DNA of 64,000 nucleotides from Amphiscolops sp. MND2022 (Eukaryota), in NCBI GenBank assembly GCA_964187785.1, contig OZ076411.1, positions 21,948,001-22,012,000 of the forward strand, given 5' to 3'. Positions 15,385-46,192 of the stretch are shown piece after piece (position 1 is the first letter of the stretch; the number at the start of each line of letters is the position of its first letter). The notes under the pieces were generated by a model. The model was not told where the DNA came from and ran no database searches. It saw only the letters and a program-made list of their open reading frames with translations. Position numbers and translations under genes: made by a program.

Positions 15385-15481
15385 TTTCGCGCTGTTTTCG
15401 TTAGAACACTTGTAGAACACAGGCCCCAGTTTCACCACAAGTCGTTGGAGTTCACCCATGTTTGTCCTGTTTTTGGAACTT

Positions 15482-20489: not shown

Positions 20490-21741
20490 GTAGTTGTATG
20501 CAGAATCTCGAGAGCCACATCCCCCTATGATCTGCCACGGACGTTGAAAGTCGATGAATATGATTCCATACTCCATAGAAATTCGACTTGAGCTGATAAC
20601 ACGATTATCACAAGTTGCAAATACTGTCGCATTTTGGGCGATTTGATGTTTTAGAAGTGGTCCACTAAGTGTCTCTCCGAGCTTCCTCCTGATAGCCCAC
20701 GACTCATCGTTCTTTCCCTTTCTGTTATTCACGGAAATAGTAAATGAAAATAGCCTTGGCCAATCACAACCCGTCACGTCTTTCAATTCAATTTAGTTTT
20801 TCGAAAGTATTTCCAAGTGATGCTTCCATTTTCAGTGTGAGTACTCATACCTCCTGTTACCGAGGTACATTCTCGTATGCTCGTGGAAATGTTCGACTAC
20901 ATTATGACTTTCGTGAACAACTCGAGACACACTCCTTCACTGACCATATCTTTTGTCCCTTTGATCTCGGTAACACTCAACGTCAGCACTTGCACATAGA
21001 GTTGCCTTCTGATATCATCGTCAATGGATATAGTCGATCAGGTATCACAATCTGCGAAGGTATCGAACTTCTTAGAGCCATTAGACAGTTGCACTGAAAC
21101 CGTTTGAAGCAAACCACTGCAAGAGTTTGCAGTCAGTGCAGGTCTCGTGGAACAATCAGAGGTTTGATGCTCGTACACTATCTTCTGATTTCTTTGATGC
21201 AGATGATTGTGCTCCTTGGTATAACCATCTCTACCACAAGTTCTTTTTGAGAAGCACTGATTCGCAAAAAACGTCCATTCAAGCAACGAAAGCATAGTTT
21301 GACTTATTTGGCTGAGTCAATTTTTTGATCTGCAGACATCTTGAAGGCGGGGCAGTTCCAAATTTCGTGATCACCGTCATTCAATGGACATTTACCTTTG
21401 GACAAGTCAGTCTTGTTCACAACTTCGGTAGTGAATGCCATCGTTTCTGGTTTGTCACTGAATTTTTTTCAGAGATTGTTCAAAATTGCTTCTTCAATTT
21501 ATCTTGGATTTCGGCAATGTTTTTCAACCAAGCGCCGAAGATGCCTTGTTTTAAAGCTGGAGTCGTACCTCTAGAGATATGACAACCACTTGGTTTTCAA
21601 ATCAATTGGCGGTTTTTCACTGCACTGTTCAAGACAGTCTCTGGATTAAGATCACTCAAATTCGAACTGAGTTAATATATTCACGCAACTGCACACAGTG
21701 TGTGAAACTTTGCTTTCATCATGGGGTTTGAATATTGGATA

Positions 21742-24700
21742 AGAGTGAATTTCCGCAATTGGGCATTTTCCACCAGATCAGGTCTTGCAAACCCTCTGGA
21801 TAATTTCTTCCAGTCGATTGGATACATCTTTCCATTATAATTTATGCCTTCGAAAGCTATCGCCTTACCTGAGACCAGAGTTTTCAAACCTACAGTTGAC
21901 ATGAACTGCCCAGACCACTCTGGCCATTTTTGCGTGTCTCCAGAAAATTAAGAATCAAATTAAGTAGCTTCGAACCCATCGCAGGTAACGATGTTAATAG
22001 ATTCACCCGAAAATTTGGCAAAGTTGCTGCATGGATTGGATTTGTTGACGGAATGAATGTCTTGTCAGGGTCATAAACTAGAATGGTTTTCTTAACACCA
22101 GAGCTTTTTTAAAAAGTGGCAGGCTTCACGGTTAGTCTTCTCGTCGATGCCAAAAGGTTTGACGTTCTATCTGGGCAATTGGAATCATTTATCATGAGTG
22201 TCAAAACTGTCCAAGACGTTTTTTTTCCGATTTCAACCAAATGTTAGTTTTGTTTTTAGCTCCCAGTGAAGAACTGATACTCGAGGGGCTAACTCTGGAA
22301 GACCCCCGAAAAGACTATCTGTAAGTTCTTCATTTTCAACTGTTTTCGTTTGTCATCGAGTAGCTGCCAACTATAACGCTTCATGTTTAGCGAGTAGTTG
22401 CTTCTAGCTGTAGTTTTGGCAGCGCTGTCTCTTCTCTGTGCATCATTTTGGCAGCAATTTGTCCTATAGGATTTGATTCCAACTCCATCCGATGACTGGA
22501 GGAAACATTGTTTTTGTTGACATTGTTATTTTTTGGCGTCACCCATCACATCACCTGGATGTTGGAATCGAACAAATTGAGCTTGTAGAAAATTGCTGGG
22601 ATCTTTGAATTGTCCTCGTCTGACGAAAACTGTATCAGCACAGTTGTTGAGTTGGAAGTTCCTCAGAAATTGAGATTTTCATTGTTGTATGAGTTGTGAA
22701 TTTGACTTTACTAGAAAAGCTAGCTTCGTTTTCAAAAGGTTGAAGCAGTAAGTGCATAGATCAGTGATTAAGCGGGCCCTGGTAAAGTCCAACTGCTTAC
22801 AATACTCTGTGCAAACAGTTCAGTTTTTTTTCGATGAGAACCAAGAATTCTATCGAAAAGAGTTTTGAATACCGCGATTTCGTTGAAATTTCTAGCTGTT
22901 CTTTGGGAGAATTATAACAAAGTGTTACTACATTGAATTGCTGAACCTGTTTTCCTCAACACTTATCGAACCAACCTTCGCGGTGAAAAAAATGACTCAA
23001 CATAAAATTTTTCAAATTTTTTTGATCTGGAGTTTTTATAACATTAAATCCTCAGAATTAAACTTATGTGGTCAGAAGTCAAGCATGACACATGATTATT
23101 TCGAAGTCCACAAACAAGATGAATTAGCTGCGTTAATGGGCGTGCAGTATTCCTGCTTTAGAAAAGTCAATTTAGGCCAAGATGTCAATCACGTGAAATG
23201 GTGGTCATCAAGACAATGTTAGGACAAATCATAAGATAACTGAATTGCGTCAAAATGGAATCTGAGCTTTAGGCGGGCTCTGGTAAAGTCTAACTGCTTA
23301 CAATACCGTAGCACTGCTCTAATACAGCTTACAATACCAGCATAGCTGGTAGCACTGCGCGTGACATTTGGAATGCGCCTGACATGGGAGTTATGCAAGT
23401 TCAAAGAAATATAATAATTCCAATAAATCTTCGAGAAGAAAATTATAAATATCAAATTAGTATATTTCGAATTACCAATAAATTCGACGTTGAAATGAAT
23501 ATTTCTCACGGAAAAAAATTGTATATCAAGTTGCGTTGTCTACAATTTGTAGAGGTGGTTCCGGGCAATGCATACTGCAGCATCAGGTTTGCAAGGACTG
23601 TTGTATTTTTCGGAAAAAGTTCGAAGTTCACTGGTTAAAGTTGATCCCTGGCGCCGACAGATGTTCAATTGCAAACGTCTCATATATCAGTCGAGACTAT
23701 TTTCCAAAACCTTCGACCTGTGTAACAACCTTGTTTGGCTCTTAGAACTATTGAAAGTATTCTAAGTTTCTACTGTTGAAGATGTTTTCCTTCGAGGATT
23801 CTGGCATTTCTTTCCTCGTAATAATTTGAGCTGACTTTGTTTCCCCACAAGCTTTTGAACTCCACAATCGTGTCTTCTCAACTTTCGCACGTGTCCATTA
23901 CTGCTGGTTGTGAAATACAGTTCAATTCATTATTCTTCGCCGACTTCGAAGAATAAACCGAACTTCGACTTGTCGAATGAAGTCATCTTTGTAGAATTTG
24001 ATTGTTTCGTAGGATCGTGTCTCTCTGGCTTGTTCCCTTGTCGTATGGTTTTTCTAATCATAAATTCTATTTGGCTCTGCCAACGATCTCGTTTCACTTA
24101 TTGCTTTCTCCGAGCTCTCACGCGTTTTCGAACTGAAACTACTTTTGGAATGAGAAAGCGGAATGTTCAAATCATCTCCGATTTTTCCTCAAAATCACCA
24201 AGTTCCAAACTTATGTTCCGAATGAATATTTTACCCATATAATTCAACTGATATTATATAGCTTCGGGCGGAATGTGTTTGAAGAGAATTTCGGATTTTT
24301 TGAGTTTGATCAATTTGACCCCGAAAAAGACTAGGTTAAACTGTCAAGATTCCAATTTCTTACGTTCTTCTGCAAATTTGTCCTTTTTCGTCGGACTTTG
24401 TGAATCAGAACAGAACGTTGGAAATTGGCCTCAAATTGACACCAAAGTGAATTTTTCGCAATTGGGCGTTTTCCACCAGCTCAGGTCTCCCTAAATCTCT
24501 GGATACATTCTTCCAGTCGATTGGATACATGGTTCTATTATAACCCATGCCTTCCATTGCTCTCGCCTAACCTGTGACCAAAGTTTTCAAATATTTCATC
24601 TTGACGTTGTCATCAACGACAGTTTCGCCTACAGTTGACATAAACTGGCCAGACCACTCTGACGATTTTTGCGTGTCTCCAGAAAGTTTGTTAAGAATCA

Positions 24701-27700
24701 AATCAAGTAGCTTCAAACCCATCGCAGGTAACGATGTTAATAGATTCACCTGAAAATTTTGAAAAGTTGCTGCAAAGATCGGATTTGTTGGCGGAATGAA
24801 TGTCTTGTCAAGGTCGTAAACTAGAATGGTTTTCTTAACACCAGAGCTATTTTTAAAACTGTAATGATCAAAAGTAGCTGGCTCCCCGGTTAGCTTTTCT
24901 CGCCGATGCTAAAGCGTTTGACGTTTTGTTTGGGCAATTGGAATAATTTATCATGAGGGTCAAAACTGTCCAAGACTTTACTTTCCGAATTTAACCAATT
25001 GCTAGTTAAGTTTTTAGCTCCCAGTGAAGAACTGATACTCGAGAGGCTAACTCTGTTGGACCCCCGAAAAGACTATCTGTAGTGTTTTCATTTTCAACTG
25101 CGTTTTCATTTGTCATCGAGTAGCTGCCAACTATAACGCTTCTTGTTTATCGAGTAGTTGTTTCTAGCTGCAGTTTTGGCAGCGCTGTCTCTTCTCTGTG
25201 CATCATTTTGGCAGCAATTTGTCCTATAGGATTTGTTTCCAACTCCATCCGATGACTGGAGGAAACGCATTGTTTTTGTTGACGTAGTTATTTTTTGGCC
25301 TCACCCATCACATCACCTGGATGTTGGAGTCGAACAAATTGAGCTTGTAGAAAATTGCTGGGATTTTTGAATTGTCCTCGTCTGACGAAAACTGTATCAG
25401 CACACTTGTTGAGTTGGAAGTTGCTCAGAAATTGAGATTTTCATTGTTGTATCAGTTGTGAATTTGATTTCACTAGAAAAGCTAGCTTCGTTTTCAAAAG
25501 ATTGAAGCAGTAAGTGCATAGATCAGTGATTACGCGGGCCCTGGTAAAGTCCAACTGCTTACAATACTCTGTGCAAACAGTTCAGTTTTTTTTCGATGAG
25601 AACCAAGAAATCTATCGAAAAGAAGTTTGAATACCGCAATTTCGTTGAAATTTCTAGCTGTTCTTTGGGAGAATTATAACAAATTGTTACTCCATTGAAT
25701 TGCTGAACCTGTTTTCCTCAACACTTATCGAACCATCCTTCCTGGTGTAAAAAAATGACTCAACATGGAATTTTCAAATTTTTTTGATCTGGAGTTTTTA
25801 TAACATTAAATCCTCAGAATTAAACATATGTGATCAGAAGTCAAGCATGACACATGATTCTTTCGAAGTCCACAAACAAGATGAATTAGCTGCGTTAATG
25901 GGCGTGCAGTATTCCTGCTTTAGAAAAGTCAATTCAAGCCAAGATGTCAATCACGTGAAATGGTGGTCATCAAGACAATGTTAGGACAAATCATAAGATA
26001 ACTGAATTGCGTCAAAATGGAATCTGAGCTTTAAGCGGGCTCTGGTAAAGTCTAACTGCTTACAATACCGTAGCACTGCTCTAATACAGCCTACAATACC
26101 AGCATAGCTGGTAGCACTGCGCGTGACAATTGGAATGCGCCTGACATGGGAGTTATGCAAGTTCAAAGAAATATAATAATTCCAATAAATCTTCGAGAAG
26201 AAAATTATAAATATCAAATTAGTATATTTCGAATTACCAATAAATTCGACGTTGAAATGAATATTTCTCACGGAAAAAAATTGTATATCAAGTTGCGTTG
26301 TCTACAATTTGTAGAGGTGGTTCCGGGCAATGCATACTGCAGCATCAGGTTTGCAAGGACTGTTGTTTTTTTCGGAAAAAGTTCGAAGTTCACTGGTTAA
26401 AGTTGATCTCTGGCGCCGACAGATGTTCAATTGCAAACGTCTCATATATCAGTCGAGACTATTTTCCAAAACCTTCGACCTGTGTAACAACCTTGTTTGG
26501 CTCTTAGAACTATTGAAAGTATTCCATGTTTCTACTGTTGAAGATGTTTTCCTTCGAGGATTCTGGCATTTCTTTCCTCGTAATAATTTGAGCTGACTTT
26601 GTTTCCCCACAAGCTTTTGAACTCCACAATCGTGTCTTCTCAACTTTCGCACGTGTTCATTACTGCTGGTTGTAAAATACAGTTCAATTCATTATTCTTC
26701 GCCGACTTCGAAGAATGAACCGAACTTCGACTTGTCGAATGAAGTCATCTTCTCTGTAGAATTTGATTGTTTCGGAGGATCGTGTCTCTCTGGCTTGTTC
26801 CCTTGTCGTATGGTTTTTCTAATCATAAATTCTATTTGGCTCTGCCAACGATCTCGTTTCACTTATTGCTTTCTCCGAGCTCTCACGCTTTTTCGAACTG
26901 AAACTACTTTTGGAATGAGAAAGCGGAATATTCAAATCATCTGCGATTTTTCCTCAAAATTACAAGTTCCAAACTTATGTTCCGAATGAATATTTTACCC
27001 ATATAATTCAACTGATATTATATAGCTTCAGGCGGAATGTGTTTGAAGAGACTTTCGGATTTTTTGAGTTTGATCAATTTGACCCCGAAAAAGACTAGGT
27101 TAAACTGTCAAGTTTCCAATTTCTCACGTTCTTCTGCGAATTTGTCCTTTTTCGTCGGACTTTGTGAATCAGAACAGAACGTTGGAAATTGGCCTCAAAT
27201 TGACACCAAAGTGAATGTTTTGCAATTGGGCGTTTTCCACCAGCTCAGGTCTCCCTAAATCTTTGGATAATTTCTTCCAGTCGATTGGATACATGGTTCT
27301 ATTATAACCCATGCCTTCCATTGCTCTCGCCTAACCTGTGACCAAAGGTTTCAAATATTTCATCTTGACTTTGTCATCAACGACAGTTTCGTCTACTGTT
27401 GACATGAACTGGCCACGCCACTCTGACCATTTTTGTGTGTCTCCAGAAACTTTAAGAATCAAATCAAGTAGCTTCAAACCCATCGCAGGTAACGATGTTA
27501 ATAGATTCACCTGAAAATTCTGAAAAGTTGCTGCATAGATCGGATTTGTTGACGGAATGAATGTCTTGTCAAGGTCGTAAACTAGAATGGTTTTCTTAAC
27601 ACCAGAGCTATTTTCAAAACTGTAATGATCAAAAGTAGCAGGCTCCTCGGTTAGCCTTTCTCGCCGATGCTGAAGCGTTTGACGTTTTGTTTGGGCAATT

Positions 27701-30700
27701 GGAATAATTTATCATGAGTGTCAAAACTGTCCAAGACTTTACTTTCCGAATTTAACCAATTGCTAGTTTAGTTTTTAGCTCCCAGTGAAGAACTGATACT
27801 CGAGAGGCTAACTCTGTTGGACCCCCGAAAAGACTATCTGTAGTGTTTTCATTTTCAACTGCGTTTTCATTTGTCATCGAGTAGCTGCCAACTATAACGC
27901 TTCTTGTTTATCGAGTAGATCTGTTTCTTGCTGTAGTTTTGGTAGCGGTATCACCTTTTTGTGCATCATTTTGGCAGCAATTTGTCCTTTATAGAATTTG
28001 TTTCCAGGTCCATCCGATTACTGGAGGAACCACATTGAGACGTTGATGACGTAGTAATTTTTTTTGCCTCACCCATCACAACAATTTGATGTTGGAATCG
28101 AACAAATTAAGCTTGTATGGAGATGAGCTGCTTACAGGAGGTTCTGGAGTTTCCGAATAGACCAATTCAGGTGATTTTTTCGATGTCGATTCTTGAGCTT
28201 GTAAGTCACTTGTCTTTTTTGCCTTCACTCATCTTTAATGCTGTTTCTGCATCGGAAAGGCTTCTCAAAGATCCACCGAAACTTGGCCAGGAGGAATGTG
28301 TTTCAGCCCTTACTCTCAGCAGAGACTCAATGTCTGCATTTTGTTTCTGAGGTATTTCGTTTGATTGAGTACAATTTTGAAGTTGTTGTTCAATAAATTC
28401 CATTCGAAATGAAGTTTTTTGTTCGTCACCAGTGATTTTCAGCTACAATAGAAGTTTGCTGGGATTTTTGAATTGTCCTCGTCTGACGAAAACTGAATCA
28501 ACACACTTGTTGTGTTAGCTTCATTCGCTCAGAAATTGAGATTCTCATTGTTGTATCAGTTGTGAATTTGGTTTCAGGAGAAAAACTAGCTTCGTTTTCA
28601 AAAGATTGAAGCAGTAAGTGCATAGATCAGTGATTCGGTCGGCATACAAGAGATAACTTTCTTTAAATTTAGCCAAATTAACTCAAAGAAAGACCAACAT
28701 AGTCCATTCCTAAAAGCAAATGATTTTCCAAAGCAAGATTGTTAATAGCTTCTAAACTCGAGAGTAAGTTTGCCATTTGAATCAATATATCAATTTTTAT
28801 AAGTATCTTTTTCTCTCGAAGCTTTTGTGTACCAACTATTATCTGTCAGTCCCAATGATAACATGTATGTTGCAAGCAAACTAACAATAAAATCCGGACA
28901 TCATAGTTGTCCGCGTCAGCGGATCAAGTGTAACCGCTGGTCGAACTACAAACAAATCTGTTTTCTAGCTGTTCTTTGGTAGAATTATAACAAACTGTTA
29001 CTCCATTGAATTGCTGAACCTGTTTTCCTCAACACTTATTGAACAAACCTTTCAGGTGAAACAAATGACTCAACATGAAATTTTCAATTTTTTTCATCTG
29101 AAGTTTATATAACATTAAATCCCCGAATTATACATGTGATCAGAGGTCAAGCATGACACATGATTATTTCGAAGTCCACAAACAAGATGAATTAGCTGCG
29201 TTTATGGGCGTCCAGTATTCATGCATTAGAAAAGTCAATATAAGTCAAGATATCAATCACGTGAAATGGTGGTCATCAAGACAATGATAGGACAAATCAT
29301 AAGATACTGAATCGCGTCAAGTTGGAATCCCAAGTAGCACTGCGCTATCAGCTATGGATTGGACATGCGCCTGACATGAGAGTTATGCAAGTTCAAAGAA
29401 ATATAATAATTCTAATAGATCTCCGAGAAGAAAATTATCAATATCAGGATAATATATTTCGAAATATCAATTAATCAGGCACTGTATCGAATTTGCGCCA
29501 CGATACATCTGTTGGGCAAGGTATTGACTGAACATTGGGTTTATAATGGGTGTTCCATACTTCGTGTGGAATAAACAATCTCACTTCACTTTTCACTTCT
29601 TGAAAAATATAAATCATTCACGAACTTGTAAATTTGATGTTGAAGTAAGTAATTCTCACCGAAAGAAATTGTATAGCGAATTGCGTTGTCTACAAATTGT
29701 AACGGTGGTCTCGGTCATGGCATACTGCAGTATCAGGTTTGCCAGAACGGCTGTATGTTAAGAAAAAGTTTGAATGATTAAAGCGGATTTCTGTAGCTAA
29801 CAGATTTTCAATTGCAAACGTCTCATATACCAGTCGAGATCCTTCTCCAAATCCTTAAACCTTGGTAACAACCTTGCTTGGCTCTTAGAACTAATGAAAG
29901 TGTTTTAAGTTTCTACTGCTGAATATGTTTGTCTTTGGAGGATTCTGCGCACTGGGCATTTCTTTCCTCGTAATAATTTGAACTGACTTTCTTTCCCCAC
30001 AAACTTTTGAACTCCACAATCGTGTCTTCTCAACTTTCACACGTTTCCATCACTGCTGGTTGTAAAATACAGAATTCAATTCATTATTCTTCGCCAACTT
30101 CGAAGAATAAACCGAACTTCGATTTGTCGAATGAAGTTGTCTTTCTAAAGTATTTGATTGTTTCGGAGGATCGTGTCTCTCTGGCTTGTTCCCGAGTTGT
30201 ATGGTTTCTCTAATCATAAATTCTGTTTGGCTCTGCCAACGACCTCTTTTCAATTAATGCTTTCTACGAGCACTCACGCTTTTTCGAGCTGGAACTACTT
30301 TTCGAATGAGAAGACAGAATATTCAAATCATCTGCGACTTTTCTTCAAATTTTGTCCGGTTCCAAATTTATACTCCGAATGAAGGTTTCACCCATATAAT
30401 TCAACTGACAACATATAGCTTCAGGCGGAATGTGTTTGAAGAGACTTTCGGATTTTTTGAGTTTGATCAAGTTGACCCCCAAAACGACTAGGTTAAACTG
30501 TCAAGTTTCTATTTTCTAACGTTTTTCTGCGAATTTGTCCGTTTTTCGTCGGACTTTGTGAATATGAACAGAACGTTAGAAATTGGCCTCAAATTGACAC
30601 CAGAGTGAGTTTTTTCATTTGGGCGTTTTCCACCAGCTCAGGTCTCCCTAAATCTCTGGATAATTTCTTCCAGTCGTTTGGATACATGGTTCTATTATAA

Positions 30701-33700
30701 CCCATGCCTTCCATTGCTCTCGCCTGACCTGAGACCAAAGTTTTCAATTATTTCATCTTGACATTGTCATCAACAACAGTTCCGCTGCATAAGTGTTTGA
30801 CGTTTTGTTTGGGCTGTTGGAATCATTCATCATGAGTGTCAAAACTGTCCAAGATTTTACTTTCCGATTTCAACCAAATGTTAGTTTTGTTTTTAGCTCC
30901 CAGTGAAGAACTGATACTCGAGAGGCTAAATCTGGAAGACCCCCGAAAAGACTATCTGTAACTTTTTCATTTTCAACTCGGTTTTCACTTGTCATCGAGT
31001 AGCTGCCAACTAAAAGGCTTCATGATTATTGAGTAGTTCTGTTTCTCGCTGTTGTTTTGGTAGCGGTATCTCCTTTTTGTTCATCAATTTGGCAGCAATT
31101 TGTCCTTCTATAGGATTTGTTTCCAAATCCATCCGATGACTGGAGGAAACACATTGAGACTTTGATGACGTAGTTATTTTTTTGGCCTCACCCATCACTT
31201 CAACTGGATGTTGGAATCGAACAAATTGAGCTTGTAGAAAATTGCTGGGGTTTTTGAATTGTCCACTTGTTGAGTTAGAAGTTGCTCAGAAATTGAGATT
31301 TTCATCGTTGTATCAGTTGTGAATTTGATTTTAGTAGAAAAGCTAGCTTCCTTTTCAAAAGATTGAAGCAGTAAGTGCATAGATTAGTGATTCGGTCGGC
31401 ATACAAGAGATAACTTTCATAAAATTTAGCCAAATTATCTCAAAGAAAGACCAACATAATAGTCCATTCCTAAAAGCAAATGATTTTCCAAAGCCAGATT
31501 GTTAATAGCTTCTAAATTCGAGAGTAAGTTTGCCATTTGAATCGATATATAAATTTTTATAAGTATCTTTTTCTCTCGAAGCATTTGTGTACCAACTATT
31601 ATCTGTCACTCCCAATGATAACGTGTATGTTGCAAGCAAACTAACAATAAAATCTGGACAGCATAGGTGTCCGGGTCAGCGGATCAAATGTAACCGCTGG
31701 TCGAACTACAGACAAATCTGTTTTCTAGCTGTTCTTTGGTAGAATTATAACAAACTGTTACTCCATTGAATTGCTGAACCTGTTTCCCTCAACACTTATT
31801 GAACAAACCTTTCAGGTGAAACAAATGACTCAACATGAAATTCTCAATTTTTTTTTCATCTGGAGTTTATATAACATTAAATCCCCGATTTATACATGTG
31901 ATCAGAGGTCAAGCATGACACATGATTATTTCGAAGTCCACAAACAAGATGTATTAGCTGCGTTTATGGGCGTCCAGTATTCATGCATTAGAAAAGTCAA
32001 TATAAGTCAAGATATCAATCACGTGAATTGGTGGCCATCAAGACAATGATAGGACAAATCATAAGATAAGATACTGAATCGCGTCAAGTTGGAATCCCAA
32101 GTAGCACTGGGCTATCAGCTATGAGTTTGAAATGCGCCTGACATTAGGGTTATGCAAGTTCAAAGAAATACAATAATTCCATTAAATCTGCGGAAGAAAG
32201 TTATCAATATCAGAATAATATGTTTCGAAATACCAATAAAGCAGTCACTGTATCGAATTTCCGCCACGATACATTTGTGAAACCAGGTGTTTACTAAACA
32301 TTGGGTTTATATTGGGTGTTCTATACTTCGTGTGGAATAAACAATCTCACTTCACTTCTTGAAATATTTAAATATTTCACAAACTTGTAAATTTGACGTT
32401 GATATAAATTTTTCTCACGGAAAGACATTTTATATCGAGTTGCGATGTCTACAATTTGTTGTGGTGGTTACGAGCAATGCATACTGCAGTATCAGGTTTG
32501 CAAGGAATTGTAATTTTAAGAAAAAGTTCGAAGTTCACCGGTTAAAGTTGATCTCTTGAGCCGACAGATGATCAATTGCAAACGTCTCATATACCAGTCG
32601 GGGTCATTTTCCAAATCCTTCGACCTGGGTAACAACCTTTTTTGGCTCTTAGAACTAACGAAAGAATTCTAAGTATCTACTGCTGAATATGTTTGTCTTT
32701 CGAGGATTCTGCGCACTGGGCATTTCTTCCCTCGTATTAATTTCAACTGACTTTGTTTCCCCACAAACTTTTGAACTCCACAATCGTGTCTTCTCAACTT
32801 TCACACGTTTCCATCACTGGTGGTTGTAAAATACAGAGTTCAATTCATTATTCTTCGCGAACTTCGAAGAATAAACCGAACTTCGATTTGTCGAATGAAG
32901 TTGTCTTTCTAAAGTATTTGATTGTTTCGGAGGATCGTGTCTCTCTGGCTTGTTCTCGAGTTGTATGGTTTCTCTAATCATAAATTCTGTTTGGCCCTGC
33001 CAACGACCTCTTTTCACTTATTGCTTTCTTCTTGCTCTCACGCGTTTTCGAACTGAAACTACTTTTCGAAAGAGAAAGCAGAATATTCAAATCATTTGCG
33101 ATTTTCCTCAAGTTTTGCCAGGTTCCAAACTCATACCCCGAATGAAGGTTTGACCCATATAATCCAACTGATAACATATAGCCTCAGGCGGAATGTGTTT
33201 GAAGAGACTTTCGTATTTTTTGAGTTCGGTCAAATTGACCTCTAAAAACCTTGTTGAACTGTCAAGTTTCCAATTTCTTACGTTCTTCTGCGAATATGTC
33301 CGTTTTTCGTCAGACATTGTTAATAGGAACAGAACGTTAGAAATTGGCCTCCAATTGACACAAGAGTTTGTTTTTCGCATTTTGGCATTTTTCCACGAGC
33401 TCAGGTCTCCCAAAATCTGGATAATTTTGTCTAGTTGATTGGATACATGGTTCTATTATTACCCATGCCTTCCATTGCTCTCGCTTGACCTGAGACCAAA
33501 GTTTTCAAATTTTTCATCTTGACGTTGTCATCAACGGCAGTTCCGCCTACAGTTGACATGAACTGGCCACACCACTCTCACCGTTTTTGCGTGTCTCCAG
33601 AAACTTTAAGAATCAAATCAAGTAGTTTCAAACCCATCGCAGGTAACGATGTTAATAGATTCACCTGAAAATTTGGAAAAGTTGCTCCATGGATTGGATT

Positions 33701-36700
33701 TGTTGACGGAATGAATGTCTTGTCAAGGTGATACAATAGAATGGTTATCTCAACACCAGAGCTATTTTTAAAACTGTAATGATCAAAAGTATCAGGCTCC
33801 ACGGTTAGTCTTCTTGCCGATCCATAAGTGTTTGACGTTTTGTTTGGGCATTTGGAATCATTCTTCATGAGTGTCAAAACTGTTCAAGATTTTACTTTCT
33901 GATTTCAACCAAATGTTAGTTTTGTTTTTAGCTCCCAGTGAAGAACTGATACTCGAGAGGCTAAATCTGGAAGACCCCCAGAAAGACTATCTGTAACTTT
34001 TTCTTTTTCAACTCCGTTTTCATTTGTCATGGAGTAGCTGCCAACTATAACGCTTCAAGTTTATCGAGTAGTTCTGTCTCTAGCTATAGTTTTGGCAGCG
34101 GTATCTCCTTTTTGTGCGTCATTTTGGCAGCAATTTGTTCTTCGGAAGATTTGTTTCCAATTCCATCCGATGACTGGAGGAAACACGTTGAGACTTTGAT
34201 GACGTAGTTATTTTTTTGGTCTCAACTGGATGTTGGAATCGAACAAATTAAGCTTATATAGAGAGACGCTGATTACAGGACGTTCTGAAGTTTACGAATA
34301 GACCAATTCAGGTGTTGTTTTCGATGTCGATTCTTGATCTTGTAGGTCACTCTTATCCTCTTTGCCTTCACTCATCTTTAATGCTGTTTCTGCATCGGAA
34401 GGGCTTCTCAAAGATCCACCGAAACTTGGCCAGAAGGAATTTTCAATGTGTTCTGACAAACTGTGAGATGTTTTCCTGTTTCCTTCGACGCCGTCCAAGT
34501 AGGTATGCCATGATTGAAGGAAGTTCGGTGCTTTCTCTGAAAATTCTGCAAGTCCTTGCGTTTCCTCACTCCCATCACGGATTCCAAGAAAATCATTTTC
34601 CCAATGGAGCACGACATTGTTTCAGCCCTTACTCTCAGCCGAGACTCAATGACTGCATTTTATATCTGAGGTCTTTCGTTTGATTGAATACAATTTTGAA
34701 TTTGTTGTTCAATAAGTTCCCTTCGAGATGAAGTGTTTCGTTCGTCACCAGTGATTCTCAGATACAATAGAAGTTTGCTGGGATTTTTGAATTGTCCTCG
34801 TCTGACGAAAACTATCAACACACTTGTTGAGTTAGATTCATTCGCTCAGAAATTGAAAAACTCATTGTTGTATCGGTTGTGAATTTGATTTCAGGAGATA
34901 AACTTGCTTCGTTTTCAAAAGATTGAAGCAGTAAGTGCATAGATTAGTGTTTCGGTCGTAATACAAGAGATAACTTTCATAAAATTTAGTCAAATTAACT
35001 CAAAGAAAAACCAACATAGTCCACTCCCAAAAGCAAATGATTTTCCAAAGCAAGATTGTTAATAGCTTCAAAATTCGAGAGTAAGATTCCCATTTGAAGA
35101 GATATATCAATTTTTATAAGTAAGTATCTTTTTCTCTCGAAGCATTTGTTTACCAACTATAATCTATCACTTCCAATGATAACAGCTATGGTGCAAAAAA
35201 ACTAACAATAGAATCCGGACAGCATAGGTGTCCGGGTCAGCGGATCAAATGTAATCGCCGCTCGAACTACAGACAAATCTGTTCGGGAAACAATTTGTTT
35301 TAATCTGAGCTTTACGCGGACTCTGGTAAAGTCCAACTGCTTACAATTCTTTGTGCAAACAGTTCAGTTTTGTTCGATGAGAACAAAGGCTTCTATCGAA
35401 AAGAATCTTGAATATCGCAACTTCGTTGAATTTTCTAGCTGTTATTTGGGAGAAATATAACAAATTATTACTCCATTGAATTGCTGAACCTGTTTCCCTC
35501 AACACCTATTGAACAAACATTCCTGGTGAAACAAATAATTTATTCATCAAATGATTTATATCATGAAATATTCATTTTTTTTGATCTGGAGTTTATATAA
35601 CATCAAATCTTCACCATCAAACTCACGTGATCAGGATCAAAGGTCAAGCATGACACATGCTTATATCGAAGTCAGCAAACAAGATGAACTAGTTGCGTTA
35701 ATGGGCGTGAAGCATTCCTGCATTAGAAGAGTCAATATAAGTCAAGATGTCAATCACTTGCAATGGTGGTCATCAAGACAATGTTAGGACAAATCATAAG
35801 ATACTAAATCGCGTCAAGTTGGAATCCCAAGTAGCGCTGCGCTATCAGGTATGAAATTGAGATGCGCCTGACATGAGAGTCATGCAAGTTCAAAGAAATA
35901 TAGTAATTCCATTAAATCTCCGAGAAGAATCTTATCAATATGAGGATAATATATTTCGAAATACCAATCAACCAGGCACCGTATCGAATTTCTGCCACGA
36001 TACATTTGGGGCAAGTGTTTACTGAACATTGGGTTTATAATGGGTGTTCCATACTTCGTGTGGAATAAACAATCTCACTTCACTTTTCACTTCTTGAAAA
36101 TTATAAATCATTCACGAACTTGTAAATTTGATGTTGAAGTAAATAATTCTCACCGGAAGAAATTGTACAGCGAATTGCGTTGTCTACAATTTGTAACGGT
36201 GGTCTCGGTCATGGCATACTGCAGTATCAGGTTTGCCAGAACGGCTGTATTTTAAAAAAAAATTTGAATCATTAAAGCGGATTTCTGTAGCTAACAGATT
36301 TTTAATTGCAAACGTCTCATATACCAGTCGAGATCCTTCTCCAAATCCTTAAACCTTGGTAACAACCTTGCTTGGCTCTTAGAACTAATGAAAGTGTTTT
36401 AAGTTTCTACTGCTGAATATGTTTGTCCTTCGAGGATTCTGCGCACTGGGCATTTCTTTCCTCGTAATAATTTGAACTGACTTTGTTTCCCCACAAACTT
36501 TTGAACTCCACAATCGTGTCTTCTCAACTTTTACACGTGTCCATCACTGCTGGATGTAGAATACAGAGTTCAATTCCTTATTCTTCGCCAAATTCGAAAA
36601 ACAAACTCAACTTCGACTTGTCGAAAGAACATGTCTTCTCTGAAGAATTTGATTGCTTCGGAGGATTGTGTCTCTCTGACTTGTTCCTGAGTCGTATGGT

Positions 36701-39700
36701 TTTTCTAATCATAAATTCTCTTTGGCTCTGCCAACGATCTCTTTCCACGTAATGCTTTCTCCGAGCTCTCACGCTTTTTCGAGCTAAAACTACTTTTCGA
36801 ATGAGAAAGCAGAATATTCAAATCATCTGCGATTTTTCCTTAAATTTTGCCAGGTTCCAAATTTATTCTCCGAATGGAGGTTTCACCCAAACAGTTCAAC
36901 TGATAACATATAGCTTCAGGCGCAATGTGTTTGAAGAGACTTTCGGAGTTTTTCAGTTTGATCAATTCGACCCCGAAAAAGACTAGGCTAAACTGTCAAG
37001 TTTCCAATTTCTTACGTTTTTCTGCGAATTTGTCCGTTTTTTGTCGGACTTTGTGAATAAGAACAACATTAGAAATTGGCCTCAAATTGACACCAGAGTG
37101 AGTTTTTTCAAGGTTGGGCGTTTTCCACCAGCTCAGGTCTCCCAAATTCTTTGGATAATTTTTTTCAGTCGATTGGATACATGGTTCTATTATATCCCAT
37201 GCCTTCGATTGCTCTCGGCTTACCTGAGACCAAAAATTTCAAATATTTCATCTTGACGTTGTCATCAACGGCAAATCCGCATACAGTTGACACAAACTGG
37301 TCAGACCACTCTGACCATTTTTGTGTGTCTCCAGATAGTTTGTTAAGAATCAAATCAAGTAGCTTTAAACGCATCGCAAGTAACGATGTTAATAGATTCA
37401 CCTGAAAATTTGAAAAAGTTGCTCCATGGATTGGATTTGTTGATGGATTGAATGTCTTGTCAAGATCACAAACTAGAATGGTTTTCTTAACACCAGAGCT
37501 CTTTTTAAAACTGTAATGATCAAAAGTAGCAGGGTCCACGGTAAGTCTTCTTGCCGATGCATAAGTCTTTGACGTCTTGTTTGGGCAATTGGAATCATTC
37601 ATCTGAGTGTCAAAACTGTCCAAGACTTTACTTTTCGATTTCAACCAAGTGTTAGTTTTGTTTTTAGCTCCCAGTGAAGAACTGATATTCGAGAGGCTAA
37701 CTCTGGAAGACCCTGAGAAATCTAGCCTTTTCATTTTATTCTCCAATTTCGTTTGTCGTCGAGTAGCAGCCAACTATATCGGTTCATGTTTATCGAGTAG
37801 TTGTTTCTCGCTGTAGTTTTGTCAGCGGTATCTCCTTTTTATGCATCATTTTGTAGGTATGCCATGATTGAAGGACGTTTGGTGCTTTCATTGAAAGTTC
37901 TGGAAGTCCTTGCGTTTCCTTACTTCCATCACGGATTCCAAGAAAATCAATATCTCAATGGTGCACGACATTTTTTCATCCCTTACCCTCAGCCGAGACT
38001 CAATGACTGCATTTTATTTCTGAGGTCTTTCGTTTGATGGAAAACGAATTTCAATTTTTTGTTCAATAAATTCCATTCAAGATGAAGTTTTTCGTTCGTC
38101 ACCAGTGATTTTCAGATACAGTAGAAGGTTGCTGGGATTTTTGAATTGTCCTCGTCTGACGAAGACTATCAACACACTTCTTGAGTTAGCTTCTTTCGCT
38201 CAGAAATTGAGATATTCATTGTTGTATACGTTGTGAGTTTGATTTCAGGAGAAAAACTAGCTTCGTTTTCAAAAGATTGAAGCAGTAAGTGTAGCGATCA
38301 GTGATTCGGTCGGCAGAGATGACTTTTATAAAATTAAGCCAAATTAACTCAAAGAAAAACCAACATAGTCCATTCCCAAAAGCAAGTCATTTTGCAAAGC
38401 AAAATTGCTAATAGCTTCTAAATTCGAGAGTTTGATTGCCATTTGAATAGATATATCGGTTTTTTCATCATTTCTCTCGAAGCTTTTGTGTACCAACTAT
38501 CATCTGTCACTTCCAATGATCACAGCTACGTGGCAAGAAAACTAACAATGAAATCCGGACAGGATAGGTGTCCGGGTCGGCGGATCAAATGTAACCGGTG
38601 CTCGAACTACAGACAAGTCTGTTCGGGAAACAATTTGTTTCAATCTCAGCTTTACGCGGGCCCTGGTAAAGTCTAACTGCTTACAATACTTTGTGCAAAC
38701 AGTTCAGTTTTTTTGATGATAACAAAGTATTCTATCGAAAAGAGTTTTGAATACCGCAATTTCGTTGAATTTTCTAGCTGTTCTTTGGGAGAATTTTAAC
38801 AAATCGTTGTTCCATGGAATTGCTGAACCTGTTTCCCTCAACACCTATTGAACAAACATTCCTGGTGAAACAAATGATTCATCATGAAATTTTCATTTTT
38901 TTGATCTGGAGTTTATATAACATCAAATCTTCACCATCAAACTCACGTGATCAGGATCAAAGGTAAAGCATGACACATGCTTATTTCGAAGTCAGCAAAC
39001 AAGATGAATTAGTTGCGTTAATGGGCGTGAAGCATTCCTGCATTAAGAGAGTCAGTATAAGTCAAGATGTCAATCACTTGAAATGGTGGTCATCAAGACA
39101 ATGTTAGGACAAGTCATAAGATACTAAATCGCGTCAAGTTGGAATCCCAAGTAGCACTGCGCTATCATGTATGAAATTGAGATGCGCCTGACATGAGAGT
39201 TATGCAAGTTCAAAAAAATATAGTAATTCCATTAAATCCCCGAGAAGAATCTTATCAATATGAGGATAATAAATTTCGAAATACCAATCAATCAGGCACT
39301 GTATCGAATTTCCGCCACGATACCTTTGGGCCAGGTGTTTACTAAACATTGGGTTTATAATTCGTGTTCCATACTTCGTGTGGAATAAACAATCTCACTT
39401 CACTTTTCACTTCTTGAAAATTATAAAATCATTCACAAACTTGTAAATTTGATATTGAAGTAAGTAATTCTCACCGAAAGATATTGTATATCGAATTGCG
39501 TTGTCTACAATTTGTAACGGTGGTCTCGGTCAAGGCATACTGCAGTATCTGGTTTGCCAGAACGGCTGTATGTTAAGAAAAAATTTGAATGATTAAAGCG
39601 GATTTCTGTAGCTAACAGAATTTCAATTGCAAACGTCTCTTATACCAGTCGAGATCCTCCTCCAAATCCTTAAACCTTGGTAACAACCTTGCTTGGCTCA

Positions 39701-42700
39701 TAGAACTATTGAAAGTGTTCTAAGTTTCTACTGCTGAATATGTTTGTCCTTCGAGGATTCTGCGCACTGGGCATTTCTTTCCTCGTAATAATTTGAACTG
39801 ACTTTGTTTCCCCACAAACTTTTGAACTCCACAATCGTGTCTTCTCAACTTTCACACGAGTTGAATTCATTATTCTTCGCCAAATTCGAAAAACAAACTC
39901 AACTTCGACTTGTCGAAAGAACTTGTCTTCTCTGAAGAAATTGATTGCTTCGGAGGATTGTGTCTCTCTGACTTGTTCCTGAGTCGTATGGTTTTTCTAA
40001 TCATAAATTCTATTTGGCTCTGCCAACGATCTCTTTCCACTTAATGCTTCCTCCGAGCTCTCACGCTTTTCGAGCTTAAACTACGTTTCGAATGAGAAAG
40101 CAGAATATTCAAATCAATTGCGATTTTTCCTCAAATTTTGCCAGGTTCCAAATTTATACTCCGAATGGAGGTTTCACCCAAACAATTCAACTGATAACAT
40201 ATAGCTTCAGGCGGAATGTGTTGAAGAGACTTTCGCAGTTTTTCAGTTTGATCATTTTGACCCCGAAAAAGACTAGGGTAAACTGTCAAATTTCCAATTT
40301 GACCGTTTTTCGTCGGACTTTGTGAATAAGAACAACATTAAAAATTGGCCTCAAAGTGACACCAGAGTGAGTTTTTCAAAATTGGGCGTTTTCCACCAGC
40401 TCAGGTCTCCCAAATTCTCTGGATATATTCTTTCAGTCGATTGGACACAAGGTTCTATTATATCCCATGCCTTCGATTGCTCTCGGCTTACCTGAGACCA
40501 AATATTCCAAATATTTCATTTTGACGTTGTCATCAACGGCAGTTCCGCGTACAGTTGACATAAAGTGGCCAGACCACTCTGACCATTTTTGTGTGTCTCC
40601 AGAAAGTTTGTTGAGAATCAAATCAAGTAGCTTCAAACACATCGCAGGTAACGATGTTAATAGATTGACCTGAAAAGTTGCTGAATGGATTGGATTTGTT
40701 GACGGAATGACTGTCTTGTCAAGGTCATAAACTAGAATTGTTTTCTCAACACCAGAGCTACTTTTAAAACTAATGATCAATGTAGCAGGCTCCACGGTTA
40801 GTCTTCTCGCCGATGCATAATCGTTTGAGACGTTTTGTTTGGGCAATTGGAATCATTCATCTGGGTGTCAAAACTGTCCAAGACTTTACTTTTCGATTTT
40901 AACCAGTTGTTAGTTTTGTTTTTAGCTCCCAGTGAAGAACTGATACTCGAGAGGCTAACTCTGGAAGACCCCTGAGAAATCTAGCTTTTTCATTTTTTTC
41001 TCCAATTTCGTTTGTCGTCGAGTAGCTGCCAACTATAACGGTTCATGTTTATCGAGTAGTTGTTTCTCGCTGTAGTTTTTGCAGTGCTATCTCGTCTTTG
41101 ACAGCATTTTGTTCTTCTATAAGATTTGTCTCCAATTCCATCCGATGACGGTGGATTGAGTCATTGATGACGTATTTATTTTTTTGGCGTCACCTAAATT
41201 AAGCTTGTATGGAGATGAGTTGATTACAGGAGGTTTTGGAGTTCCCGGAGAGACCAATTGAGGTGTTTCTCGATGTCGATTCGTTGAGGTTGTGGGCCAC
41301 TCTTGTCCTCTTTGGCTTCACGCATCTTCATTGCATGCTGTTTCGGCATCAGAAGGGCTTCTCAAAGATCCACCGAAACTTGGCCAAAAGGATTTTCAAT
41401 TTGTACTGACTAACTGTTAGATGTTTTTCTGTTACCTTCGACGCCGTCCATGTAGGAATGCCATGATTGAAGGACGTTTGGTGCTTTCATTGAAAATTCT
41501 GGAAGTCCTTGCGTTTCCTTACTTCCATCACGGATTCCTTTAAAATCAGTTTCTCAATGGAGCACGACATTGTTTCATTCCTTACTCTCAACCGAGACTC
41601 AATGACTGCATTTTATTTCTAAGGTCTTTCGTTTGATTGAATACAATTTTGAAGTTCAATAATTTCCAATCGAGATGAAGTTTTTCGTTCGTCACCAGTG
41701 ATTTTCAGCTACAGTAGAAGATTGCTGGGATTTTTGTATTGTCCTCCTCTGACGAAAACTGTATCAACACACTTGTTGAGTTAGCTTCATTCGCTCCGAA
41801 ATTGAGATACTCATTGTTGTATCAGTTGTGAACTTGATTTTAGGAGGAAAACTAGCTTCGTTTTCAAAAAAATCAAGCAGTAAGTGCATAGATCAGTGAT
41901 TCGGTCGGCTTACAAGAGATAACTTTCATAAAATTTAGCCAAATTAACTTAAAGAAAAACCAACATAGTCCATTCCCAAAAGCAATTGATTTTTCAAAGC
42001 AAGACTGTAAATAGCTTCTAATTTCGAGAGTAAGTTTGCCATTTGAATAGATCTATCGATTTTAATAAATATCTTTTTCTCTTGCAGCATTTGTGTACTA
42101 ACTATCATCTCTCACTTCCAATTATAACAGCTATGTTGCAAGAGAACTAACAATAAAATCCGGACAGCATAAGTGTCCGGGTCGGCGGATCAAATGCGAC
42201 CGCAGCTCGAACTACCGACAAATCGGTTCGAGAAACATTCTGTTGTAATCTAAGCTTTACGCGGGCCCTGGTAACGTCTAACTCCTCACATCGCTTTGTG
42301 CAAACAGTTCAGTTATTTTTCGAAGAGAGCAAAGTATTCTATAGATACAAAAAATTTTGAATGCAGCAAATCCGTTGATTTTCCAGCTGTTTCTTTTTCG
42401 GGAGAACTATCACAAATTGTTACTCCATTAAATTGTTGAACCTGTTCCGTTCAACAAGTATTCACAAACTTTCCCGATGAAACAAACGACTCAACATGAA
42501 AAGTTCAATTTATTTCTGATGTGGAGTTTATTTAATATTGAACTTTCAGAAGTAAACTTTTGTAATCAGAGGTCAAGCATGACACATGATTATCTCGAAG
42601 TCCACCGACTAGAAGAATTAGTTGCAGTAATGGGGGTGAAGCATTCCTGCATCAGAAACGTCGATATAAGTCAATATGTCAATCACTTGAAATGGCGGGC

Positions 42701-43978
42701 ATCATTCATTCAAGACAATGTTATCACATATCATAAGATAAGGTAGTGAATCGCGTCAAAATTGAGTCCCAAGTAGCAGTGGGCTATCAGCTATGAATTT
42801 GAAAATGCGCCTGACATGAGAGTTATGCAAGTTCAAAGAAATATATTAATTCCATCAAATCTCTGAAAAGAAAATTATCTTTTCTTATAATATCAGGATA
42901 ATATATATCGAAATACCAATAAATCAGGCACTGTATCAAATTTCCGCCACGATACATTTGGGCCAGGTGTTTACTAATCATTGCGTTTATAATGTGTCTT
43001 TCATACTTCGTGTGGAATAAACAATCTCACTTGACTTCTTGAAAAATTAAATAATTCACAAACTTGTGAATTTGATGTTGAAATAAATATTTCTCACGGA
43101 AAGATTGTATATCGAATAGCGTTGTCTACAATTTGTAGTGGTGGTTACGGGCAATGCATACTGCAGTATCATGTTTGCAAGGACTGTTGTATTTTTCAGA
43201 AAAAGTTCGAAGTTAACTGGTTAAAGTTTTTCTCTGGCGCCGACAGATTTTCAATTGCAAACGTCTCATACCAGTCGAGATCCTTTTCCAAAGTTTTCGA
43301 CCTGGGTAACATCCGTGTTGGGCTCTTGAAAGGGTTTCTACTGTCGAATACATTTGTCATTCGAGGGTTCTGATTACCGGACATTTCTTTCCTCGTAATA
43401 GTTTGACCTGACTTTGTTTCCCTATGGGCTTCCTAACTACAGTCGTCTCTTCTCAACTGTGGCACGTGTCCGTCACTGCTGTAGAATACAAAAAATCAAT
43501 TCACTATTCTTCGCCAACTTACGAAGAATGAGCTAAATTCGACTTCTCGAATGAAGTTGTCTTCTCCTACGACTTTTTTTCAGAGTATCGTGTCTCTCTG
43601 GCTTGTTCCCGTGTCGTATAGTTTCTCTGATCAAAAATTCTGTTTGGCTGTTGCAACGATCTCTTTTCACTCGCGATTTCGAATGAGAAAGCAGAATATT
43701 GAAATCAGCTGCAGTTTTTTTTTTAAATTTTGCCAGGTTCCAAACTTATACTCCGAATGAAGGTTTCAACCATATAATTCAACTGATCACATATAGCTTC
43801 AAATGGTGTGTGTTTGTAGAGACTTTCGGTTTGTTTTTTGAGTTTCATCAAACTGACCCCAAGAAAGACTAGACTAAATTGTCAAGTTTCCAAGTTCGTA
43901 CGTTTTTCTGCGAATTGGTCAGTTTTTCGATAGACTTCGTGAATAAAAACAACGTTAGAAATTGGCCTCAAATTGACC
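21742..43978 (-). repeat. Tandem macro-array of 7 units, each = 5' half of Pao gag + leader/LTR + ~0.7-0.8 kb of upstream flank
   Basis: The junction aaattgacacc|agagtga recurs. Units: 21742-24443, 24444-27207, 27208-30601, 30602-33362, 33363-37094, 37095-40363, 40364-43978 (about 2.70, 2.76, 3.39, 2.76, 3.73, 3.27, 3.62 kb). DUF1759 marker gattggatac at 21816, 24519, 27283, 30676, 33437, 37171, 40439. LTR-start dinucleotides end at 23659, 26421, 29802, 32566, 36296, 39617, 43245. After 43978 the flank continues as unique sequence; left of 21742 gag continues into pol. Confidence 0.9.
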
Positions 43979-46192
43979 TTTGAGTTGTCGAAATTTCCAC
44001 AATTATCTTTATTTGTTGCTGTAAATGCAATTTGTGTACAGTTTCCGAGAGTCTTTCTGGATTTGGAGGTTCCAAACGTTGGAAGTGGAATACACTCACT
44101 TGCGATACAGTACACTTTTTTGAAGAGAAAGGCGCAATGTTTTGCTTCAAAAACACTTCAGAACGAGTCGAAAATCATGTTTTGATGTTTTCATGCGTTA
44201 GAATATTGAATGGTTTTTGTGCGTTAGAATGTTGAAAAAGTTTTACGACGATCAAACGTGTAATTTCTAATTGATGTCTCAGATTCAGGCTAAAAGGTGC
44301 CTGAAACTGATCCCAATAAATCAAAAATATCAAATATCAACATTTTTTAAAACTATTTGTGCAAATGTAGAAACGTTTCGTAAGTTTTAGTAATCATAAA
44401 CATCCAGGTGGAATAACAGCCACGCAGTATGCCTTTTATTGGAAGAAAAACTCTGTTACAGTTTCTAGGTAGAACAACATCTCACACTGACCCAAAGTAG
44501 TCGATCAATCGAAGAGTTTTCAACGTTTTTTTTCCCGAATTTTGTAAATGGGTTAGGTTTAGGTATGGCGTTATCAAGTAGATTTTCTGCACTTTTTTGC
44601 ATTTTTCCTTGCAAATTTCAGATGTTGATGGTTTTTACAAAGGCTCCATTGATAAGAATATCGAAACAAGGACTAGCTATGCTGTTCAAAGTTCATTGTT
44701 TTTTGAGGTTCTCAGTCACGTTTGATATCGAAACGTTTCGGAAGATATACCTGCGTTTTTTTTGTTTAAAAAGGCCCCACTAACGAACCAATCTTAAAAC
44801 ATGCCCATAAGTTTGAAACTTTGTTCAATTTTTGTTTGTTTGTAGATTAAAACCTATTCAAAACGCAAGTATATAGAGAAACTGGGATAAAGTTTCTCAA
44901 CTTTGAAAACAAAGGAGTCAAAGTTGCGAGTTATCCGAGAGTTTACTGAAATTGAAAAATGCATAATCTCAGTATCCAAACTACGCATTTGAAAAAGGAA
45001 TCGGACAAAACATTTGCAAAAACTCTGAAGTTTTATTAAAAAGATAAAGTTGTTTTTCTTTCGACATCTTTGATCGAATATTGTGAATGAAAGTTCTTCA
45101 GAATGACCAGAAATAATTGGGTATCTAAAAGGGTAAACATACCACATTTGTTGTTCAATTCAACATTGAAGTCATAACATCAATCAGAAAACTGCAAAAA
45201 GTAGTGTAAAATTGTGTTTTCAGGTTTTTGATGTTTTATGTTTTCGAGGCACTTTTGCAACAAAAACTTTGGATCGCTTTCCGTGGAAGCGTAATGATAG
45301 CTAGTTGGTTCATCGCCGCTGAATTTTGTGGGTTATAGGTTTTCGAAACGTTCGAAAACTCAACAAAAATTCTGAGTTCGATGTCCTCAAAATCTGATGT
45401 TTTTGGCTATTTTGGGTAGATTCAATTGCTTGGCTTAGAAATGTACAGAATAGCTGTTCAATCTCTTTTAGTTTCTTTCAATCCTTGATGACTGCTGTGA
45501 AAATGTGTGAAGAGTTTGATTTCAACATAACAATCGCTAACACCAGAAGAAAAACAGACTTTTCCGTTCATTGTCTCATTAATTTCACTTTTATGTGAAA
45601 CTTTTCTGCCATTCAACCTGAAATCGACGCTCCGATTGAAGCTTAACAAGTGAATTAAGTTTTTAAATACACTGAGGGGTGAAATTCGCAAATGTTCTCG
45701 AAAATCCTACAATTCAGAATTCACCTGAAGGGGTTCTCTAGGCTAGAAAAACGCTTTTAATTAACGTGAAAAAACACCAAAAACTCAAGGACAGTGCTTT
45801 GGTTGTTTTAAAATTCTGGATAACCCCACAAAGTTGAACGTATCCGAGAAGGTCCTTTCAGGCTCAAAAATTGAGTTCCCTAACTTAAAAACCAAAATGA
45901 TGGAAAGATATTTTTCATGTTTTAATAGTTGGAAAAAATGCTTATGGCCAAAAAGTGCAATGATAACGTTTTCGTCTCGAAGAACTCATTTCCATCACTG
46001 AAAACTACAGGACCCAAGCGAGGAAACGTTTAGCGAAAAAAATTTGGGAAAGTATCTTACCTAAGAAACCCTAAAACAGGAATCCTTTGGCCTCGTAATG
46101 AATTTTTTCCTAGGATGTTATTTTGAAAACTTTGGGTTTATTTGAATTGCTTGTGATTCCCTAAAGTTCTATTTTTTCTTTCAGATGACTAA

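Follow-up and report, generated by a model that had tools for sequence, protein, structure and literature searches.

What process can turn the boundary of one retrotransposon insertion into a tandem array of many kilobases, and does such an array serve any function? These questions are raised by a stretch of 64,000 nucleotides from the acoel Amphiscolops sp. MND2022 (assembly GCA_964187785.1, contig OZ076411.1, positions 21,948,001 to 22,012,000), hereafter the window, in which part of a Bel/Pao long terminal repeat (LTR) retrotransposon is repeated together with the DNA beside it. The answer that we favor, with a probability of roughly 0.78, is that this is an old and decaying array, which would have begun with a single founding duplication of the end-joining type and would owe its later, functionless growth to unequal exchange and to gene conversion among neighboring copies. 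The array is one upper-tail outcome of a process that is common across the source genome.

Seven copies of one retrotransposon junction

Comparison of the window with itself by BLAST, together with alignment, reveals a ladder of direct repeats formed by seven head-to-tail units (U1 to U7) spanning positions 21742-43977. Cut at the breakpoint common to all of them, the units measure 2702, 2764, 3394, 2760, 3733, 3269 and 3614 bp respectively, and their pairwise identities over ungapped columns range from 83.1 to 95.2%, well above chance. The seven-unit array is real and lies where a preliminary description of this DNA, made from the sequence alone, had placed it. Tandem Repeats Finder is blind to periods above 500 and hence leaves the array undetected, and a search against Rfam gave no match at gathering score within the window. 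On the minus strand every unit reads as 733-800 bp of flanking DNA followed by the LTR start, the leader and gag, with gag stopping at about codon 640 of the open reading frame (ORF) of a related full-length Bel/Pao element, inside the DUF1759 domain (562-705). The unit alignment shows that all six internal junctions have one breakpoint sequence; at the outer ends, U1 continues into gag-pol and U7 into flank. The anatomy, common breakpoint and outer ends given in the preliminary description were thus largely right. The array is a tandem repeat derived from a transposable element (TE), with head-to-tail monomers that are homologous to a part of that element and joined at one common junction.

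The units, all on the minus strand, differ in their LTR starts and in their deletions. The start is of the TGTCGGCGCCAG type in U1, U2 and U7 and a varied form of it in U4, and is TGTTAGCTACAG in U3, U5 and U6. U1 (21742..24443), in which the 5' part of gag is joined to pol, has deletions in gag and leader, an LTR at 22768-23658 and 785 bp of flank. U2 (24444..27207) has the same deletions as U1, and in both the 3' end of the LTR is gone together with the primer-binding site. A deletion of ~170 bp is common to the LTRs of U3 (27208..30601; LTR 28925-29801) and U4 (30602..33361; LTR 31685-32565), the latter having more deletions in gag. The LTRs are near full length in U5 (33362..37094; LTR 35246-36295), which is the longest unit, and in U6 (37095..40363; LTR 38586-39616) and U7 (40364..43977; LTR 42191-43244). 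Deletions therefore affect four of the seven LTRs, and wherever a primer-binding site survives (five units) it differs from that of the full-length relative.

By homology, the parent of the array is a Bel/Pao LTR retrotransposon. This classification is made because a relative (L001) contains a single gag-pol ORF of 2138 aa with five domains (in order DUF1759, RVT_1, Peptidase_A17, Integrase_H2C2 and DUF5641, all above the Pfam cut-off) that is colinear with the window element at ~77% DNA identity; Peptidase_A17 was also matched directly in the window, below the Pfam cut-off. Our genome-wide DNA searches covered the 1.07-Gb assembly of the source, with the best candidates scored, and a unit used as query found at least 57 dispersed matches at 70-79% identity. 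Most of the ten relatives that were fetched have LTRs of ~0.9-1.3 kb that are 98-100% identical to each other, and all four displayed ones have 5-bp target-site duplications; LTRs of ~1.08 kb with TG...CA ends are likewise present in relatives. What remains of the parent beyond U1 is a gag-pol remainder (15385..21741, minus strand), broken by many stops and frameshifts, in which protease, reverse transcriptase, Peptidase_A17 and integrase regions are recognizable, and then the first ~180 bp of the 3' LTR (15207..15384, minus strand). This piece abuts a fragment of a different high-copy Pao-like family (14669..15159, minus strand), and the window yielded no 3' LTR end bordered by the target-site duplication that would be expected, the LTR being cut after ~180 bp. 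The homology proposed earlier between the unit LTRs and a 3' LTR at 15384 holds at 70-76% identity, over the surviving piece only. The related proposal that the locus reduces to one ordinary Pao insertion agrees with the colinearity of the element; its left end, where the 3' LTR is truncated against the other family, is unproven.

The junction itself is confined to this locus. An exact 24-mer across it occurs four times in the genome, always within the array, the other two junctions having substitutions; a query of flank plus junction matches end to end only at the array (7 of 40 among the matches listed), and the junction pattern has no match in metagenome contigs. For flank segment 43246..43676, too, the scored candidates gave matches within the array only. 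The adjoining piece, 43676..44173, is a decayed copy of a dispersed repeat (~70% identity) that straddles the duplication breakpoint at 43977. As the homology to this repeat crosses 43977 in U7 only, it is U7 that has kept the native flank, and the flank does not belong to the interior of the Pao element. The co-amplified flank is, however, only partly single-copy DNA, and the earlier claim that host flank was amplified along with the element stands with that qualification. Amplification in situ of one insertion junction, as first described, is borne out by the restricted 24-mer and by the single crossing of the breakpoint, and the genome-wide junction search that had been set as a check returned no dispersed copies. 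A non-autonomous mobile element composed of flank, LTR and gag was rejected on the same ground, the junction being confined to the array among the best-scored candidates. A tandem of LTR, internal region and LTR formed by recombination between LTRs was likewise set aside, as it had been at the outset, since the units include flank, are cut within gag and exclude pol; and the junction runs from mid-gag to mid-flank rather than between element ends, contrary to an array of TE dimers from double insertion. The flank-repeat family is itself old and dispersed, with a conserved head and tail and variable internal tandem repeats of ~185 bp (relatives L011-L017). This layout may be akin to that of non-autonomous Helentrons.

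Probable founding duplication and growth of the array

Judged against native flank and native gag, homology at the founding junction does not exceed 1 nt, and 2-3 nt of extra sequence are present; the native flank side of the comparison is backed by one of two relatives of the flank repeat. As far as an old junction can be read, this would fit end joining or template switching better than homologous recombination, double insertion or exchange between LTRs.

The later history can be read from trees of different unit segments, which conflict in a regular manner. In gag the pairs are (U2,U3), (U4,U5) and (U6,U7), with U1 outside, whereas in leader and LTR they are (U1,U2), (U3,U4) and (U5,U6), with U7 outside; support is 87-100 across the segment trees. 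This shift in register implies that the copied unit was centered on the junction, and the six junction-centered units (J1 to J6) form three neighboring sister pairs. J1/J2 are 97.7% identical in LTR plus flank (U1 against U2) and 96.4% in gag (U2 against U3); the corresponding values are 90.7 and 92.1% for J3/J4, and 94.6% (U5 against U6) and 91.5% (U6 against U7) for J5/J6. Identity between the pairs is 85-91%. The native ends behave as outgroups: the flank of U7, the most divergent part of the array, is 80-82% identical to the other six, and the gag of U1 is 86-88% identical, compared with 85-98% among the internal copies. Duplication of one block, which would pair J1 with J4, was rejected as that pairing is not observed.

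Exchange between units is evident from the distribution of informative sites. Incompatibility between nearby sites is 0.123, against 0.264 +/- 0.008 after permutation, a value reached by none of 1000 permutations (218 informative sites), and this clustering of compatible sites is a signal of recombination among the units. A tract of ~300 bp over the LTR start and the adjacent flank unites U3 with U5 and U6 (22 informative sites, columns 3000-3500), which indicates a probable conversion. The tract lies at 29630-29900, 36120-36400 and 39445-39720 in these units, where it has a branch of 0.18 against 0.04-0.08. No donor was found outside the array for this divergent LTR 5' end, the best outside match being 74%; because the tract runs into the flank and an outside donor was not found, exchange within the array is preferred.

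Ordered by divergence, the history would comprise the insertion of a Bel/Pao element beside an older repeat (5' versus 3' LTR, 70-76%), then the founding duplication (80-88%) and then the later duplications (85-98%). In the founding step a stretch of ~3.8 kb, extending from the middle of gag through ~0.8 kb of flank, would have been duplicated head to tail; the junction is observed directly, and end joining is its probable source. The junction-centered unit would then have been recopied, ending with three separate local duplications that had their crossovers in gag or leader, and with at least one conversion tract; here the pairing is what we see, and unequal exchange is the likely mechanism behind it. 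Finally, the units have accumulated stops, frameshifts and deletions, all of them visible in the sequence.

Several observations weigh against this account. The mean distances at the two native ends disagree (19% versus 13%), so that extra conversion is needed, and the long branch of the LTR 5' end in U3, U5 and U6 lacks an explanation. The J3/J4 pairing is weak in LTR plus flank, where J3 is 90.9% identical to J5, and the founding junction is old, with its signature partly erased. None of the 17 duplications in the genome sample described below reaches five copies, and seven copies over 22 kb exceed what that sample predicts. The neutral part of the account, moreover, draws on coding decay alone and leaves a non-coding role aside.

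The identical breakpoint at all six junctions would also be expected if a circle of flank, LTR and gag had been excised, replicated by the rolling-circle mode in one burst and re-inserted in place, a route listed among those leading to TE tandems (PMC5932611, PMC3648361). Such a burst, however, predicts a star tree, and the array instead shows three neighboring sister pairs of differing ages (90-98%), deletions that are shared by neighbors, and segment trees in conflict. An early, small burst to three junctions would be compatible with the identity between pairs; as the origin of the array, a single burst is unlikely.

Tandem duplication elsewhere in the genome

A founding duplication followed by unequal exchange raises the matter of how frequently the first step occurs in this genome. 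We sampled 12 contigs in 12 blocks placed at round coordinates, amounting to 1.18 Mb of unselected sequence (L043-L102, L105-L162), for adjacent duplications with a period of at least 700 bp and a matched span of at least 0.7 period. The sample contains 17 of these, covering 97,906 bp or 8.3%. Three of the 17 have at least 2.5 copies. Identity is below 97% in six and at least 97% in the remaining 11, which may include assembly errors or false duplications; the density may accordingly be a genome-wide trait or partly an effect of assembly.

Arrays of higher copy number are also present. In 140 kb beside the window, a unit of 832 bp recurs ~17 times in a 14-kb stretch with ~93% identity (C3:21880087-21894070, 54-68 kb to the left of the window), and a unit of 1.95 kb is present in ~4 copies plus a partial one at ~92% identity (C3:21926206-21934111, i.e. 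L033:8206 to L034, 11-22 kb to the left). The 832-bp unit (L029:2087 to L030:6070) has no match among the other loci compared. A chance match led to a third array, in which a 2.1-kb unit is repeated 6.5 times at 97-99% identity (C4:67581324-67595004, i.e. L024:1324 to L025:5004); the array lies within another Pao-like element, bounded by a gag-like start and by the end of pol, and its units keep long open frames of up to 710 codons. A 2-kb part of pol is duplicated in one of the ten fetched Pao relatives. The tandem duplications noted in copies of the same Pao family measure 2.0 kb in pol, with 8 bp of junction homology (L006:1321-5332), and 1.3 kb across LTR and leader (L164:1794-4398). The parent element in the window contains an internal duplication in pol as well (15482..20489, minus strand), formed by 2.3-kb copies at 15482-17785 and 18185-20489 that are 99.4% identical. 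The preliminary description had overlooked this duplication, which may be a complex rearrangement of recent date or else an error of assembly. Its copies end differently, one extending ~400 bp and the other meeting the 3' end via a deletion.

Eleven duplication junctions were displayed: seven show 0-8 bp of homology or a 4-nt insert, one lies in a shared repeat of 178 bp, and three belong to multi-copy arrays and were left unscored. The founding step is common in this genome, and the high copy number of the Bel/Pao array is upper-tail rather than unique; the rarity implied by the preliminary description does not survive the 17 kilobase-scale duplications in 1.18 Mb and the additional multi-copy arrays.

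A broader proposal can be built on these figures, and we put it forward tentatively, as it is improbable. It holds that the lineage is a natural germline tandem duplicator, with kilobase-scale units duplicated head to tail about once in every 70 kb (8% of the sampled DNA). The junction homology, mostly 0-8 bp, would be like that of polymerase-theta-driven duplications in BRCA1/TONSL-deficient worms and tumors, and the cause might be that a suppressor, for instance TONSL-MMS22L or BRCA1-BARD1, has been lost or altered. The array would then be the best-preserved product of this state, with every stage on view from a single duplication to a proto-satellite that is still attached to its source. 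A search with the MMS22L_C profile gave no match in the genome and was run without a positive control, and a probe for a BARD1-type RING gave two unassigned matches below cut-off; neither result supports or refutes the proposal. Should the density of kilobase-scale duplications hold up and stand out among animals, acoels would offer a natural system in which to study tandem-duplication suppression. The genome-wide duplication rate is a better lead than the array.

Decay, neighbors and relation to known arrays

Every gag piece in the array contains 3-15 in-frame stops and 9-17 indels of non-triplet length relative to the full-length relative, some of which may be family differences. The ratio of nonsynonymous to synonymous substitution (dN/dS) is 0.88 among units, compared with 0.60 against the relative, the pairs not being independent. 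A coding role for the gag copies is not supported, given these stops and this ratio, and the array is probably functionless, its neutrality being judged from coding decay only.

The neighboring gene bears on a possible non-coding role. The array ends 2.2 kb before an ORF for PNUTS/PPP1R10 (46193..48955, plus strand, 920 aa, with TFIIS-N (Med26) and a CCCH finger), which is outside the array; among named relatives the best is from an acoel, Convolutriloba macropyga (PPP1R10/PNUTS, with 54% over the query region). A pyrimidine tract resembling a splice acceptor, with its AG end at 46184, precedes this ORF, so the predicted ORF start does not place the promoter. After the tract, in 46151-46200 of the window, an upstream ORF of three codons overlaps the PNUTS start codon, and the 920-codon ORF has no intron. 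Another acoel is reported to trans-splice 30% of its genes (PMC9911081).

The proximity to PNUTS, the three near full-length LTRs, the young full-length relatives in the genome with LTRs 98-100% identical, and the persistence of the array through 10-20% divergence without collapse are all features that might be expected of a retained regulatory block, acting as a source of small RNAs against an active Pao family, a heterochromatin seed, or an enhancer or silencer of PNUTS. Set against this, identity between the units and the young family is only ~74%, probably a poor match for small-RNA targeting; the units all have one orientation, with their LTRs facing away from PNUTS; four of the seven LTRs have deletions; and the 5' part of the LTR diverges faster than gag (mean distance 0.16-0.20 versus 0.10-0.13). 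Given the acceptor-like tract and the trans-splicing described for acoels (PMC9911081), the PNUTS promoter may also lie elsewhere. Retention for regulation is therefore quite improbable, and the seven LTR promoters envisaged earlier are not supported by the deletions and the orientation of the LTRs.

An origin in assembly, by stacking of haplotypes or through read errors, deserves mention because 11 of the 17 background duplications are at least 97% identical and could be false, because such artefacts are reported in another acoel assembly (PMC9911081), and because U1 and U2 form a pair with 96-98% identity. The units nonetheless diverge from one another by 5-17%, share deletions in a nested pattern and form a structured tree; two haplotypes cannot yield seven distinct versions, and the sequence of the window is free of N. 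Doubt is limited to at most one unit (J1/J2), and an assembly expansion, which the preliminary description had named as a possible refutation, is disfavored by the unit identity of 83-95% and very improbable for the array as a whole. Least probable of all is an amplification caused by read-through into the LTR element from a Helitron-like rolling-circle element in the flank: the relatives of the flank repeat do carry internal tandem repeats of ~185 bp, but breakpoint 43977 is internal to the repeat, ~300 bp from its edge (~43676), homology continues across the breakpoint, and the repeat, ~30% diverged from its relatives, is older than the array.

Elsewhere in the window, short tandem repeats of 15 bp and 59/60 bp are found at 56593-56716 and 58677-58981. 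A Pro/Ser-rich open frame of 652 codons (1728-3686, plus strand), whose end matches F_actin_bind weakly (E 8e-4, under the cut-off), is probably the last exon of an Abl-type kinase.

We found no report of a Bel/Pao tandem array, no matching case of an array built on an LTR-flank junction, and nothing on point concerning tandem duplication density in acoels in the open literature. TE-derived arrays with multi-kilobase monomers that include non-element DNA are already known from plants and flies, and many TE-derived satellites have been catalogued (PMC6947457). The array alone is therefore of little weight. Its modest value is as a legible, if putative, two-stage birth of a satellite in an animal Bel/Pao element, with the two native ends, the founding junction and the sequence of later duplications all still recognizable. 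With seven copies over 22 kb at one locus, it falls short of the size of a strict satellite. Exchange and conversion are detected in it, yet the monomers are 83-95% identical with differing deletions, so that the term satellite, as first applied, overstates a set of seven copies that are diverging rather than homogenized.

One close parallel is with the Sobo satellite of wild potato, a single-locus tandem whose multi-kilobase monomer (4.7 kb) combines LTR-related sequence, another repeat and genomic DNA (Tek et al. 2005, as cited in PMC3648361). Sobo, however, is described as a recently amplified pericentromeric array of ~360 kb, whereas the Bel/Pao array has seven diverging copies over 22 kb, is joined to its parent gag-pol and belongs to an animal. 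The maize CRM1TR and CRM4TR tandems similarly arose from retrotransposon LTR and leader and show local homogenization and gene conversion; the monomers of CRM1TR, in contrast, are ~0.7-0.8 kb, consist only of the element and number 187 near centromeres, without the flank and gag found here (PMC3648361). In the two-stage model for the hobo, R1 and Bari1 arrays of Drosophila, a small tandem is enlarged by unequal exchange and retains the founding signature at every junction, and a euchromatic hobo array near a gene has 13-19 copies (PMC5932611). The Drosophila dimers from double insertion or LTR-LTR recombination consist of whole elements (PMC5932611), unlike the present founder, which would be a segmental duplication with breakpoints in gag and flank.

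Multi-kilobase units, unequal crossover and shared conversion tracts are also features of the maize P1-wr cluster, where an end-joining junction has filler DNA; the unit there contains a functional gene (PMC2686159), and here it contains dead element DNA. The founding junction and seven of the 11 displayed junctions of the source genome resemble the polymerase-theta tandem duplications of BRCA1/BARD1- or TONSL-deficient C. elegans, whose junctions have scant homology, none at all, or a short insertion (PMC7368036, PMC13031629). Those duplications occur in repair mutants, with sizes of ~25 kb and ~300 kb for TONSL loss (PMC7368036, PMC13031629), and a repair defect in the source genome would be hypothetical. 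Taken together, these comparisons suggest that the array resembles what may be an early stage in the life of TE-derived satellites.

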